Of a DNA stretch of 64,000 nt, positions 41,003-45,651 are shown one piece after another. The notes under the pieces are model-generated. The model did no database searches. It worked only from the letters and a program-made list of their open reading frames with translations, and was not told the DNA's origin. Location: NCBI GenBank assembly GCA_019695305.1, contig JAIBAG010000005.1, positions 3,361 through 67,360 on the forward strand. The letters are read 5' to 3'. How positions within the stretch are numbered: the first letter of the stretch is position 1; the number at the start of each line of letters is the position of its first letter. Source of the DNA: a bacterium (GTDB lineage: Bacteria; UBA10199; JAIBAG01). The translations under genes were made by a program, and so were the position numbers.

Positions 41003-41404
41003 ATGCAAAAGAAACTCCGCATCTTAATTGGTAAACCCGGCTTAGACGGCCACGATCGTGGCGCTAAAATTATTGCACGTACCCTGCGTGATGCTGGTTA
41101 CGAGGTAATATATTCAGGTTTACACCAAACTCCTGAGATGATTGTGAACACGGCTATCCAAGAAGATGTGGATGCGATTGGGCTTTCTATTTTATCTGGC
41201 GCTCACAACTATCTTTTCCCTGCCGTAATTAAGCTTTTAAAGGCTAATAAAGCTGAAGATGTGGTGGTATTTGGTGGCGGTATTATCCCCGAAGACGAAA
41301 TTGCTGGCCTTAAAAAAGAGGGCGTAGCCGAGATTTTTACTCCCGGCGCCGACACCCGTGATATCGTCAAATGGATTGAGTCTAACGTCCAGCCGCGTAT
41401 ATAG
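41003..41404 (+). CDS. acyl-CoA mutase small subunit (cobalamin-binding domain)
   Basis: 133 aa with B12-binding DxHxxG...([21 protein letters not shown]) and a Rossmann-like fold. The last 5 codons lie inside the first unit of the 41-bp tandem array. Confidence 0.85.
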
Positions 41405-41529
41405 ATGAGTACCAAGGCCGTCCTTTAGGGCAGCCGCGTATATAGATGAGTACCAAGGCCGTCCTTTAGGGCAGCCGCGTATATAGATGAGTACCAAGGC
41501 CGTCCTTTAGGGCAGCCGCGTATATAGAT
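41390..41529. repeat. perfect 41-bp direct tandem repeat, 3.4 units
   Basis: Unit CAGCCGCGTATATAGATGAGTACCAAGGCCGTCCTTTAGGG. Copies lie at 41390, 41431 and 41472, with a partial copy at 41513. Unit 1 overlaps the stop of the B12-subunit gene. Confidence 0.95.
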
Positions 41530-41549: not shown

Positions 41550-42665
41550 CTAATTTGCCAAACGTTTTTTCAAGAATCTAAATCCTAATAATCCCATCAA
41601 TAAAACAAGTATTGAATAGTCTATTTGGTTTGAGCTTTTTATGGATAGAGCACAGCTACTACCACTTCCCTGTACTTGTATTGCAGAAATAGCGGGTGCT
41701 GGAACAATAGCCGGTGTACTGGGTTTGCCCGCATTATCATCTTCTTGAGGTGTCTCCGGATTTTCTGGCGTAGTAGGTTCTTCGGGTGTTTCTGGATTGG
41801 TGGGATCTTCTGGGTTTTCAGGTGTGCTGGGTGTTTCATCGCAATTTTCTTCAGGGTCATTAGGATTGGTTCCATTTTTTAATTCTACCCAGTCCCAGCA
41901 ATCGTCTTCATCATCATCAAATACGTTTTTTGTTTTTGTAATATAATCATCGCCAATACCGGCATCAACGTTACTGCCTGCAAACACATAGAGAGTCACA
42001 CGCGGGTCTATTTGGTAGCCTTGTGTAAAAGCAGGAATGCTAAATTCTGAATAAGGATAAGTTTGTGAGGGTTGTGCAAAAGGAGTGATGGTGGATTCCA
42101 AATTGTAAAAGCTTTCATTTTGGGGGAGAAATGTAATGAAAGTAGAGTTGGGAATATAGCGCCCAAAATCAGCATAGTTATGGCCAAACGCAAGACCTGT
42201 CATAATATCAACTGAACCGCCGTTCATTCCAATGATGCCTTCAGCGGGAAGGGTTTTGGCATCACCGTTTAAGTCCCATAATATAAAAAAGGCTTCACCT
42301 GCAGAGTTTCCTTTTCGTCCTAAGTTGGCTAAGTCTTCATATTCTAAACCTGGAACAGTTTCTCCGGAAGAGGGGTCGCCATTTCCATCAGCGTCACCAA
42401 AAATTTTACCATCGTATGTTTTAACGCCCACATGCATGGTGTCTTCGGAGCCATCGTAAAAGAAACACACTTTTTCCATGTCCCAACCGCTAGTATTTAA
42501 ACCAAGGTTTTGGAGCGCTTCAGGAATACCCACATCTAAAGGATCTGTTATGCAATTAATGTCTTTAAAATCAGCCTCAATATCGCCCGTAAAAACAAAA
42601 GCATGAGCCTTAAGAGAAAAAATTAAGATGAACGTGATAAAAAAGAGCTTTGTAAACGTACGCAT
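41550..42665 (-). CDS. secreted acidic protein with Pro/Glu-rich linker and C-terminal Cys + TM + basic sorting tail
   Basis: Signal peptide MRTFTKLFFITFILIFSLKAHA. Near the C-terminus, PENPEDPTNPETPEEPTTPENPETP is followed by GSGSSCALS...YSILVLLMGLLGFRFLKKRLAN. This is a TM helix with an Arg/Lys tail, resembling MYXO-CTERM or PEP-CTERM-type signals. Confidence 0.6.
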   Translation of the reverse strand: MRTFTKLFFITFILIFSLKAHAFVFTGDIEADFKDINCITDPLDVGIPEALQNLGLNTSGWDMEKVCFFYDGSEDTMHVGVKTYDGKIFGDADGNGDPSSGETVPGLEYEDLANLGRKGNSAGEAFFILWDLNGDAKTLPAEGIIGMNGGSVDIMTGLAFGHNYADFGRYIPNSTFITFLPQNESFYNLESTITPFAQPSQTYPYSEFSIPAFTQGYQIDPRVTLYVFAGSNVDAGIGDDYITKTKNVFDDDEDDCWDWVELKNGTNPNDPEENCDETPSTPENPEDPTNPETPEEPTTPENPETPQEDDNAGKPSTPAIVPAPAISAIQVQGSGSSCALSIKSSNQIDYSILVLLMGLLGFRFLKKRLAN

Positions 42666-42735: not shown

Positions 42736-43053
42736 TCAGTCTATGTTATTGATTAAATTACGTTTTTTTTGAGTGGGATATTGCTTAATTTGATATTCCC
42801 GAATGAGTGCTTCCGAGCGATTATTGAGAGTCTCTTGATATTTAAGGGTAACAGGCCTGCGTGTCCGTGTGTATTTAGCGCCTTTACCCAAATTATGTTG
42901 TTCAAAGCGGCGTTCTAAATCGTTGGTGATGCCAGTATACAAGGTGCCATCCGCACATTCCAAGATATACAAAAACCATTGCTCAAGAGCTGCATGGTTC
43001 TTGAGATCTTCGGCTTTTAAGCCTTTAATCATTTGTTTGTATTTTGGTTTCAA
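42736..43053 (-). CDS. GIY-YIG nuclease superfamily small protein (UPF0213-like)
   Basis: WFLYILECADGTLYTGITNDLERRFEQHN...GAKYT matches the GIY-YIG core. The true start may be an internal Met. Confidence 0.7.
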   Translation of the reverse strand: MKPKYKQMIKGLKAEDLKNHAALEQWFLYILECADGTLYTGITNDLERRFEQHNLGKGAKYTRTRRPVTLKYQETLNNRSEALIREYQIKQYPTQKKRNLINNID

Positions 43054-43075
43054 GATTTTGCTTTATTGTGATGAT

Positions 43076-43705
43076 TTACTTTCTTATTGTCAAAAATAAT
43101 TCTTTAGGAGCAATTCCTTTTAAAGCTTTTGGAGCTATGAGCGACATTTTTCTCATTTGGTTTTGAATATAAATACAGTCAAGCACATGCTTTGCTTCAA
43201 AAATAGATTGCAAATCATCCAAGTCTTTGTAACGTCGAGGGTCATTTTTGTAAGAATAGAACTTGGAAATAATAATATCTTCCACGGTAATGCACGGTAT
43301 TTTTTTATTCCATCCAAAATCAATCAAGTTAAGGCTCGATCTTTCCAAGGCTTCTTTAAACCATGGCATGGAAGGTAAAATAAAATCGAGACCGATCGCC
43401 CCAGGCTTACTACTATCTTTTCCGACGACCATATAGGGTTCGGTATTTTTCCTTTTAATCGCAAAAAGAGGGCCTCCTTCTAAATCGGCTTTTCGTATAA
43501 TATGAGGGTTAAGAGCCTGAGCCTTAATAAGTTCTTCAGCTTTTTGCTGAGAGGAGGATTCTGAAATAATTAAAAAATCAAGGTCGCGTGTAGTGCGTTC
43601 TTCTTTGCGGTAGACAGAAGCAACTAAGCCGCCCGCCACAGCATATTGCAGTCTTTCTTGCTCGAGCACTTCAATCATCTGTTTTAAAAAATGAATGATG
43701 TTCAT
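43076..43705 (-). CDS. pol-beta superfamily nucleotidyltransferase
   Basis: 209 aa. AVAGGLVASVYRKEERTTRDLDFLI fits hGG-x13-14-DhD of minimal nucleotidyltransferases. Overlaps the upstream wHTH gene by 4 nt. Confidence 0.6.
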   Translation of the reverse strand: MNIIHFLKQMIEVLEQERLQYAVAGGLVASVYRKEERTTRDLDFLIISESSSQQKAEELIKAQALNPHIIRKADLEGGPLFAIKRKNTEPYMVVGKDSSKPGAIGLDFILPSMPWFKEALERSSLNLIDFGWNKKIPCITVEDIIISKFYSYKNDPRRYKDLDDLQSIFEAKHVLDCIYIQNQMRKMSLIAPKALKGIAPKELFLTIRK

Positions 43706-44094
43706 GATCTTATATGATTAAAAAGTTCATGTATCTCTGCGCAAAAATTGAGAACCCTTTCTGCTTTTTCATGATACATCTGAGCTCGTAGAGCAATATG
43801 GGTTTTATTTTCTAGTTCAAAAAGCTGAGTTAAAAAAGAATGATAGGGATGATCTGGGTTAAGCGAGAAAAAAGATCGGTTTTTCCGTTTTTTTTGAATA
43901 ATTAATTTTTCGTTTGTCAGTTGTTCTAAGGCGCGTTGAACAGAAAAAACAGGAGCTTGAATAAGATAAGAAAGTTGCCGAAGGGGCAATGGTTCATCGC
44001 TTCTGGAAAGAGCTTTTAACACTTTAAAACGAGTGGGATTCGCTAAAATACTAGAACTGTCTAACATGCTAAAAGTGTACAAATATTTATACAC
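43702..44094 (-). CDS. winged helix-turn-helix transcriptional regulator (ArsR-like)
   Basis: 130 aa. ...ANPTRFKVLKALSRSDEPLPLRQLSYLIQAPVFSVQRALEQLTNEKLI... fits the ArsR/SmtB-type wHTH pattern. Confidence 0.6.
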   Translation of the reverse strand: MYKYLYTFSMLDSSSILANPTRFKVLKALSRSDEPLPLRQLSYLIQAPVFSVQRALEQLTNEKLIIQKKRKNRSFFSLNPDHPYHSFLTQLFELENKTHIALRAQMYHEKAERVLNFCAEIHELFNHIRS

Positions 44095-44133
44095 ATTTTC
44101 AACTATATACTTATAATATATTGAAATTATTAA

Positions 44134-44952: not shown

Positions 44953-45651
44953 ATGGATACCCGAATTAACGCACCCATTCAAGCGCAAATACTAGGAACA
45001 ATTGCTTATAACGATGCTATGAGCGTGATGAAAACCCTGTACGATAAACGTCATGCTGGTGAAATTTCCGATACGCTTTTAGTGCTCGAACATCCACCCG
45101 TCATTACTTCGGGTCGGCAACAATCCGATCACGATCTCAAACTTTCTATAGATGAATTAAAGAACAAAAAAATAGATTTTGTTCATTCCGATCGTGGAGG
45201 TAAGCTTACCTGTCATGAACCTGGTCAGTTGGTTGTGTACTTTATTTTTAATCTCCATGAACGTAAATGGTCCGTTGAAAAACTAGTATGGATGGCCGAA
45301 GAGGGTTTAAAGCGAGCGCTTTCTAAAATGGGGATTGAAGTGGAGCGTGATAAAGAGCATCCCGGCCTATGGGTAGAGCATAATAAAAAAATTGCAGCAC
45401 TTGGTTTTCATATTTCACGGGGCATTACAACACATGGAATAGCCTTAAATGTGAACAATACTCTCAATACTTTTCTGTACATAATTCCGTGCGGAATTGA
45501 AGGTCGTAGTGTTACAACTATTTCAAAAGAATTAAATAAAACAGTAGGTTTAAAAGAAACAGTTGATGTTTTGCTGGAATCTTTTGAAGAAGCTTTTGGA
45601 AATACAATTATCCTAAAAACACCGAGCGGCGTTTTTGCAACAAATCCTTAA
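44953..45651 (+). CDS. lipB: lipoyl(octanoyl) transferase
   Basis: 232 aa. ...LVLEHPPVITSGR...HPGLWVEHNKKIAALGFHISRGITTHGIALNV... are LipB catalytic-region motifs. Confidence 0.85.
   Translation: MDTRINAPIQAQILGTIAYNDAMSVMKTLYDKRHAGEISDTLLVLEHPPVITSGRQQSDHDLKLSIDELKNKKIDFVHSDRGGKLTCHEPGQLVVYFIFNLHERKWSVEKLVWMAEEGLKRALSKMGIEVERDKEHPGLWVEHNKKIAALGFHISRGITTHGIALNVNNTLNTFLYIIPCGIEGRSVTTISKELNKTVGLKETVDVLLESFEEAFGNTIILKTPSGVFATNP

Follow-up and report, generated by a model that had tools for sequence, protein, structure and literature searches.

A putative toxin-antitoxin pair of the MenAT/AbiE kind with a predicted operator inside its core promoter, next to an apparently unrelated GIY-YIG gene

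Nucleotidyltransferases (NTases) of the DUF1814 (AbiEii/MenT) family are among the most abundant effectors of toxin-antitoxin (TA) and abortive-infection systems. MenT1 of M. tuberculosis adds cytidines to the 3'-CCA ends of tRNA and so blocks aminoacylation; its D41, K137 and D152 are needed for toxicity, and T39 is auto-phosphorylated upon antitoxin binding (PMC10435456; PMC11375011). Induced auto-phosphorylation of the toxin is reported for MenA1-MenT1 (PMC11375011), and also for MenA3-MenT3 and AbiEi-AbiEii. AbiE autoregulates via inverted repeats in its promoter, and a DUF1814-specific motif IV has been defined as +DxxD (PMC3985639). As partners of DUF1814 toxins, COG5340, COG4861, MenA1 and SanaA-like proteins have been described (PMC3985639; PMC11375011; preprint), and SanaTA protects against a T7 mutant, from which it follows that small DUF1814 modules can act in phage defence (preprint). 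Here we analyse a stretch of 64,000 nucleotides from a bacterium of the UBA10199 lineage (contig JAIBAG010000005.1, positions 3,361 to 67,360; hereafter the window), in which a gene for a winged helix-turn-helix (wHTH) protein is directly followed by one for a minimal NTase and then by a small GIY-YIG gene. We read the first two as a bicistronic, autoregulated TA-type module of the MenAT/AbiE (DUF1814) kind and the adjacent GIY-YIG gene as unrelated to it, a reading to which we assign a probability of about 0.75. In window coordinates, the three open reading frames (ORFs) are:

43702..44094, minus strand: wHTH ORF as listed, 130 amino acids (aa) from a GTG start
43076..43705, minus strand: NTase ORF, 209 aa
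42736..43053, minus strand: GIY-YIG ORF, 105 aa from a TTG start

An initial annotation had taken all three as one cassette, a candidate TA or defence module, and the geometry that it described, three minus-strand ORFs with a 4-nt overlap and then a 22-nt gap, agrees with the ORF list. The wHTH stop and the NTase start overlap in the tetranucleotide ATGA, and 22 nt separate the NTase stop from the GIY-YIG TTG, or 43 nt if the GIY-YIG gene starts at ATG 43032, the start used by NCBI (98 aa, MBX7148201.1).

We find that the NTase matches Pfam PF08843 (AbiEii/DUF1814) at 33.8 bits over residues 16-173, above the gathering cut-off of 22.5, and it carries the NCBI name 'nucleotidyl transferase AbiEii/AbiGii toxin family protein' (MBX7148202.1). 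At least 225 relatives are found at ~50-58% identity, the named ones being called 'AbiEii/AbiGii toxin family', and most homologues also have a precomputed PF08843 match; NCBIfam gives nothing for the NTase or the GIY-YIG protein, and PHROGs nothing meaningful. A profile of the family, searched against the PDB, recovers MenT1 (Rv0078A, 8AN4) as the sole significant solved relative (E 3.6e-4). The AlphaFold2 model of the NTase (mean predicted local distance difference test, pLDDT, 87.5) leads to the same protein: the top five Foldseek matches in the PDB are all MenT1/MenAT1 (E 9e-9 to 7e-7, template-modelling (TM) scores 0.5-0.7; 0.62-0.70 at E 9e-9), and ANT(2'')-Ia, LnuA, CCA-adding enzymes and MenT3/TglT follow far behind. 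Together with the linkage of the two genes at 26 of 26 related loci described below, the PF08843 score and the MenT1 relationship uphold the earlier suggestion that a wHTH protein and a minimal NTase form an AbiE-like, TA-type pair here.

The residues that matter in MenT1 are conserved in this NTase position for position, the phospho-acceptor included. Motif I/II (pol-beta hG[GS]-x9-15-DhD) reads A24-G25-G26, 14 residues, D41-L-D43, so that the GG-x14-DLD signature picked out initially is indeed present; the third acidic residue, D107, sits in an invariant GLDFILP segment, and the DUF1814-specific motif IV (+DxxD) is found as K160-D161-L-D163-D164, with D164 equivalent to MenT1 D152. The position equivalent to the phospho-acceptor T39 of MenT1 is also T39, invariant and two residues ahead of the DxD. 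A HMMER alignment pairs T39, D41, D43, K137 and D152 of MenT1 with T39, D41, D43, K148 and D164 of the NTase, and G25, G26, T39, D41, D43, D107, K148, D161, D163 and D164 show no variation in 20 family members, whose identity to the query is 51-59%. Because the fold and the catalytic and regulatory residues are conserved, the NTase looks catalytically competent and MenT-like. Like MenT1, its best solved relative by both profile and fold, it is a short (~200 aa) DUF1814 NTase, and in MenAT1 (MenA1 Rv0078B - MenT1 Rv0078A) as in the window the toxin gene comes second, after that of the antitoxin (here the putative ones); the two toxins differ in that they are just 17-21% identical and in that the window NTase has an extra invariant loop. 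This loop, at residues 71-78 (R71-K72-A-x-L-x-G77-G78, within IRKADLEGGP), belongs to the best-conserved stretches of the family; nothing in the MenT1 alignment corresponds to it, and the model is less confident there (pLDDT ~68).

The partner protein was examined in the same way. No Pfam family matches it above threshold, and domain scans give sub-threshold hits to HTH_20, the IclR-HTH and an ArsR/SmtB NCBIfam model (30 bits). Its AlphaFold2 model (pLDDT 96.1) comprises an ArsR/SmtB-type winged helix at residues 1-69 and a single continuous 45-residue helix at 76-120, and the top Foldseek matches are SmtB, HlyU and CzrA of the ArsR family; these and the ArsR/SmtB scan hit justify the label 'ArsR-like' given to it at the outset. 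The C-terminal helix is amphipathic, with a conserved hydrophobic stripe at 3-4 residue spacing in which A102, L106 and F108 are nearly invariant. In an exhaustive search of representatives the family amounts to 187 representative clusters, nearly all of 117-135 aa. AbiEi Pfam families match neither the window wHTH (E up to 1) nor any of 23 members (E up to 0.1), and the top 50 Foldseek matches of the window model include no AbiEi structure.

Comparison with the described partners sets this protein apart. MenA1 is a 68-aa SymE-like protein that lacks a DNA-binding domain, whereas the window partner combines an ArsR-type wHTH with a helix in 121 aa; there is no detectable sequence similarity between the two, and a wHTH profile search of the PDB does not retrieve MenA1 at E up to 1. 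MenA1 neutralises its toxin with one long alpha-helix, and the window wHTH likewise ends in one long helix. Since MenA1 has 68 aa and no DNA-binding domain, the module, judged by its predicted architecture, is not MenAT1. The bicistronic layout, in which a PF08843 NTase gene follows that of a wHTH-containing antitoxin, is that of AbiE (L. lactis / S. agalactiae) and MenAT3/MenAT4, and the four NTase motifs of AbiE are common to the window NTase; AbiEi, MenA3 and MenA4, however, are ~200-aa two-domain COG5340 proteins, whereas the window wHTH has 121 aa and no AbiEi Pfam or fold match, and the window NTase is ~80-90 aa shorter than MenT3 (293 aa). The initial remark that the pair is much shorter than AbiEi/AbiEii is correct in both parts (121 vs ~200 aa; 209 vs 293 aa for MenT3), and since the partner is by sequence and model not a COG5340 AbiEi, we would not call the module AbiE in the strict sense. 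SanaTA, RlegTA and SdenTA, DUF1814 TA systems obtained by shotgun cloning, also combine a DUF1814 toxin with a short antitoxin (SanaA, 136 aa); according to the preprint these antitoxins are COG5340 proteins or distant relatives, and the window wHTH is set apart from them by that description only. We found no description of an ArsR-type wHTH-plus-helix partner for a DUF1814 toxin in the searchable open-access literature. By analogy with these systems the wHTH is a putative antitoxin and autorepressor, and the pair, as far as its sequence tells, is an autoregulated module with an unclassified short antitoxin family.

The wHTH gene most likely spans 43702..44067 (121 aa) with its start at ATG 44067, not at GTG 44094, because all ~25 homologues begin with a Met that aligns with ATG 44067 and because GTG 44094 falls inside a conserved promoter/operator region. 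The wHTH protein (43702..44094, minus strand) is missing from a 15-billion-protein collection under both candidate starts, and the proteins of its two neighbours bear the consecutive NCBI accessions MBX7148201.1 and MBX7148202.1; the gene may be unannotated, or given another start, in the source record. Upstream of ATG 44067 we find:

44076..44093: predicted 18-bp palindromic operator TGTATAAATATTTGTACA (letters given on the minus strand), pattern TGTnnA-N6-TnnACA
44074..44102, minus strand: sigma-70-like promoter TTGAAA-17-TACACT, from a promoter scan

The palindrome spans the promoter spacer and the -10 box, and the -10 box ends 6 nt ahead of ATG 44067, with the A of the start codon as the predicted transcription start; the wHTH-NTase mRNA is therefore predicted to be leaderless. 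The pattern TGTnnA-N6-TnnACA has a single match in the window. Among 24 non-redundant related loci it is exact in 18 and present with at most one mismatch in 22, against a chance expectation of 0.0015 per locus. The geometry TTGA...palindrome...TACA[AC]T...ATG also recurs among these loci, with the last base of the palindrome at -9 (±1) from the ATG in most of them and the TTGA ~7-8 nt upstream of the palindrome. The operator thus placed, one 18-bp palindrome inside the core promoter, differs from that of AbiE, where two 23-bp repeats are separated by a spacer. The window pair nonetheless has the traits of an AbiE-type operon, namely antitoxin-first order (26/26), a 4-nt overlap and a conserved promoter palindrome, with repression as the predicted consequence. 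The half-sites vary symmetrically (43 of 48 positions), and they pair with the recognition helix of the wHTH as follows:

Half-site TGTACA/TGTACA: recognition helix S-x-Q-[R/C/H]
Half-site TGTATA/TATACA: recognition helix S-x-Q-[N/V/L]
Half-site TGTCTA/TAGACA: recognition helix [S/G]-x-E-[V/H]

Such co-variation is what direct readout by a symmetric dimer predicts, and the loci concerned are phylogenetically related, hence not independent events.

To place the pair among its relatives, we compared 29 loci (12 genomic and 17 metagenomic), each encoding a relative of the NTase, by six-frame profile searches for the three proteins. The genomic loci come from metagenome-assembled genomes assigned to Nitrospirales, Nitrospira, Bdellovibrio, Bdellovibrionales, Bacteriovoracaceae, Bradymonadales, 'Deltaproteobacteria' and Pseudomonadota. 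A wHTH gene lies immediately upstream of the NTase gene on the same strand at all 26 loci at which the upstream region is present. Loci with more similar wHTH proteins also have more similar NTases (r = 0.81 between the pairwise identities, 153 pairs), the wHTH evolving faster (mean identity 30%, vs 52% for the NTase). The flanking genes are mostly housekeeping and different at each locus (98 flanking proteins), and an all-against-all comparison of flanking ORFs reveals no other conserved neighbour of the pair. Natural wHTH-NTase fusions exist: protein P0251 is a deletion fusion, and P0354 is a full-length fusion of 320 aa whose NTase lacks the GG and DxD motifs; P0259 is also counted among the decayed or fused copies. 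At two loci (L004, 6001-6636; L011, 6001-6635) a frameshift splits the NTase gene next to an intact wHTH gene. This decay of the NTase alone fits a toxin under pressure of loss. At a further locus (L005, 6453-7820), next after the pair come an RNA ligase gene and a MazF/PemK toxin gene on the opposite strand, and a small accessory cluster results. Shared ancestry of the window region with this locus was considered and rejected: the acyl-CoA dehydrogenases and methylmalonyl-CoA mutases are 63-73% identical, but the enoyl-CoA hydratases are 33% identical and the orientations differ, so that synteny is suggestive only.

The flanking proteins also bear on the idea of an MNT-HEPN-like module (PADLOC candidate PDC-M05), whose NTase would serve as antitoxin and would modify a partner toxin. 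PDC-M05 pairs an NTase with a HEPN-domain protein (PMC12988326); it resembles the window pair in its minimal NTase, some M05A models include a wHTH, and PADLOC returns weak PDC-M05A matches for both the wHTH (E 4e-8, confined to the wHTH portion of the model) and the NTase (E 0.003). The HEPN partner is missing here, however, with no HEPN domain in the window neighbours or among the 98 flanking proteins, and the NTase scores higher against AbiEii models, folds like MenT1 and is of the toxin (DUF1814) type, whereas that of MNT-HEPN is an antitoxin. We regard this explanation as the most improbable of those considered.

The GIY-YIG gene, proposed as the third component of the cassette, gives a different picture. 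Its product scores 68.6 bits against PF01541 (cut-off 22.6) and matches the UPF0213 protein BH0048 (PDB 1ZG2) at E 3.7e-17 over ~77 residues and EF2693 (PDB 1YWL) at E 1.1e-13, resembling these small proteins in size and in its single domain, with no notable difference; more than 2,400 homologue matches make up a large family of ~100-aa stand-alone proteins. The GIY-YIG profile finds nothing at any of the 29 related loci, 19 of which include at least 400 bp downstream of the NTase; the window copy, as positive control, is detected at E 4.5e-49. Three GIY-YIG homologues located on long contigs have pseudouridine synthase/BipA, GatB/TsaD and NusA/peptidase genes as neighbours, and neither an NTase nor a wHTH is near any of the three. 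A possible promoter of its own precedes the gene:

43065..43093, minus strand: promoter-like site TTGACA-17-CACAAT, in the 3' end of the NTase gene and directly upstream of the GIY-YIG gene

This site matches the consensus at 10 of 12 positions and suggests that the GIY-YIG gene is separately transcribed; such sites number 8 in the 2-kb region against 6.0 expected, so it is weak evidence alone. A three-gene defence cassette, with the GIY-YIG nuclease as effector or third component of the wHTH-NTase pair, would agree with the common strand, the tight spacing (22 or 43 nt), the lack of a terminator-like site between the NTase and GIY-YIG genes, and a G+C content that is lower in all three genes (35-39%) than in the flanking metabolic genes (44-46%). 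It is made highly improbable by the 0 of 29 related loci with the profile, by the housekeeping surroundings of the homologues, by a protein typical of UPF0213 that has no PADLOC match, and by the promoter-like site, and the third-component role originally put forward fails on the same evidence. No PADLOC model matches the trio either, a check that had been suggested at the outset. Linkage in relatives, the test set beforehand, separates the two parts of that proposal: the third gene is linked at none of the 29 loci, and the wHTH-NTase pair is linked throughout (26/26). We take the GIY-YIG gene to be an ordinary UPF0213 housekeeping or accessory gene and a chance neighbour of the pair, and the 'TA + GIY-YIG' combination to be adjacency by chance rather than a new three-gene defence system.

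For the pair itself, the comparisons suggest the following mechanism. A wHTH dimer would bind the 18-bp palindrome over its own -10 box and thereby repress the leaderless wHTH-NTase transcript, with translation of the NTase probably coupled through the ATGA overlap. Free NTase, if it acts like MenT1 and MenT3, would add nucleotides to tRNA 3'-CCA ends and so block aminoacylation and growth. In E. coli, MenT1 has no toxic effect. The wHTH would neutralise the NTase, likely via its amphipathic C-terminal helix, by occluding the active site, by inducing auto-phosphorylation of T39, or both. More tentatively, and with the odds against it, the wHTH may represent an undescribed class of DUF1814 antitoxin, in which an ArsR-type operator-binding domain is joined to a single long, MenA1-like neutralising helix that docks on the NTase and triggers T39 auto-phosphorylation, in a compact type VII module with a leaderless transcript and an operator inside the core promoter.

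The pair may act in a stress response or serve nothing but its own maintenance; a role in phage defence (abortive infection) is possible by analogy, as SanaTA and L. lactis AbiE protect against phages. Defence-like proteins among the 98 flanking ones comprise three PDC-S01-like ATPases, one OLD/Gabija-like ATPase, one TIR protein and two Bro-N proteins, too few to speak of a defence island, and that context was rejected. In 3 of the 18 loci that were inspected for it (L001, 3982-5346; L002, 4297-5451; L012, 6968-8128), the pair has as a direct neighbour an AAA_14/DUF4143 ATPase that fits PADLOC candidate PDC-S01, upstream in one and downstream in two.

Several points weigh against an autoregulated MenAT/AbiE-type module with an unrelated neighbour. 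The toxicity of the NTase, its modification of tRNA, its neutralisation, the phosphorylation of T39 and the binding of DNA by the wHTH are properties that we infer from homology and anatomy. For the neutralisation step there is no homologous precedent, because MenT1 has an antitoxin that does not contain a DNA-binding domain and AbiEi comes from another family. The identity of 17-21% to MenT1 is low and the profile E-value of 3.6e-4 modest, aminoglycoside and lincosamide NTases are among the weaker fold matches, and the loop missing from MenT1 could mean a different substrate. Protein searches found no copies of the family on 72,556 plasmids or 50,697 phages, and with flanks that are mostly housekeeping this leaves a defence role with little context support. 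Finally, given the 22-nt spacing and no terminator, transcription from the pair may read through into the GIY-YIG gene.

Some of these points would equally suit a non-toxic NTase, for example one that acts on small molecules or antibiotics as ANT(2'')/Lnu enzymes do or one that repairs or tails RNA, with the wHTH as a mere repressor that has no antitoxin function. The fold matches to ANT(2'')-Ia and LnuA (E 5e-4 to 6e-3, TM 0.46-0.64) agree with this, as do the RKADLEGGP loop, which is family-specific, invariant and missing from MenT1, the mostly housekeeping contexts, and the observation that S. agalactiae AbiE gave no phage protection in E. coli (preprint). The MenT1 match, however, is better than those to antibiotic NTases by several orders of magnitude, and neither the DUF1814-specific motif IV nor the phospho-acceptor T39 varies. 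Antitoxin-first order, a 4-nt overlap and predicted tight autoregulation are typical of TA modules, as are a patchy taxonomic spread, variable contexts and repeated decay of the NTase alone. The conserved 45-residue helix would go unexplained in a pure DNA binder, though dimerisation could account for it. We therefore consider a non-toxic enzyme unlikely and favour the TA-type reading of the pair.

If the pair is such a module, its interest lies in a minimal MenT1-like toxin combined with a different, very small antitoxin, a clean 18-bp operator, and visible co-variation between operator and recognition helix. It would offer a compact system for studies of autoregulation and neutralisation in lineages of Nitrospirota and Bdellovibrionota that experiments cover thinly. 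Current work holds that structurally unrelated antitoxins all neutralise DUF1814 toxins through induced auto-phosphorylation, and the wHTH-NTase family would provide an added test.

As to the description of the three small genes as wedged between metabolic genes, an enoyl-CoA hydratase gene is the upstream neighbour, and downstream a gene for a secreted-looking protein of 371 aa comes first, with methylmalonyl-CoA mutase beyond it. Around the cassette, no direct or inverted repeat was convincing as an insertion scar, and no Rfam family and, by tRNA scan, no tRNA was found in the window. The 371-aa ORF (41550..42665, minus strand) has no Pfam match, a signal-peptide-like N-terminus, and an acidic low-complexity stretch rich in Pro, Glu and Thr (PENPEDPTNPETPEEPTTPENPETPQEDD). 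It ends in 'GSGSSCALS', a hydrophobic segment and 'FRFLKKR', an arrangement that we take to resemble a MYXO-CTERM/PEP-CTERM-type sorting tag. A perfect 41-nt tandem repeat (41390..41529; 3.4 copies, 100% identity, unit CAGCCGCGTATATAGATGAGTACCAAGGCCGTCCTTTAGGG), with no further copy in the window, begins in the last codons of the gene for the B12-binding subunit of methylmalonyl-CoA mutase (stop 41404) and occupies the convergent intergenic space ahead of the 371-aa gene. On the other side of the cassette, the 5' ends of the enoyl-CoA hydratase ORF (TTG 44988, minus strand) and of a divergent 232-aa ORF (44953..45651, plus strand) overlap at 44953..44988, and the enoyl-CoA hydratase probably starts at a later Met (MSQDIII...).

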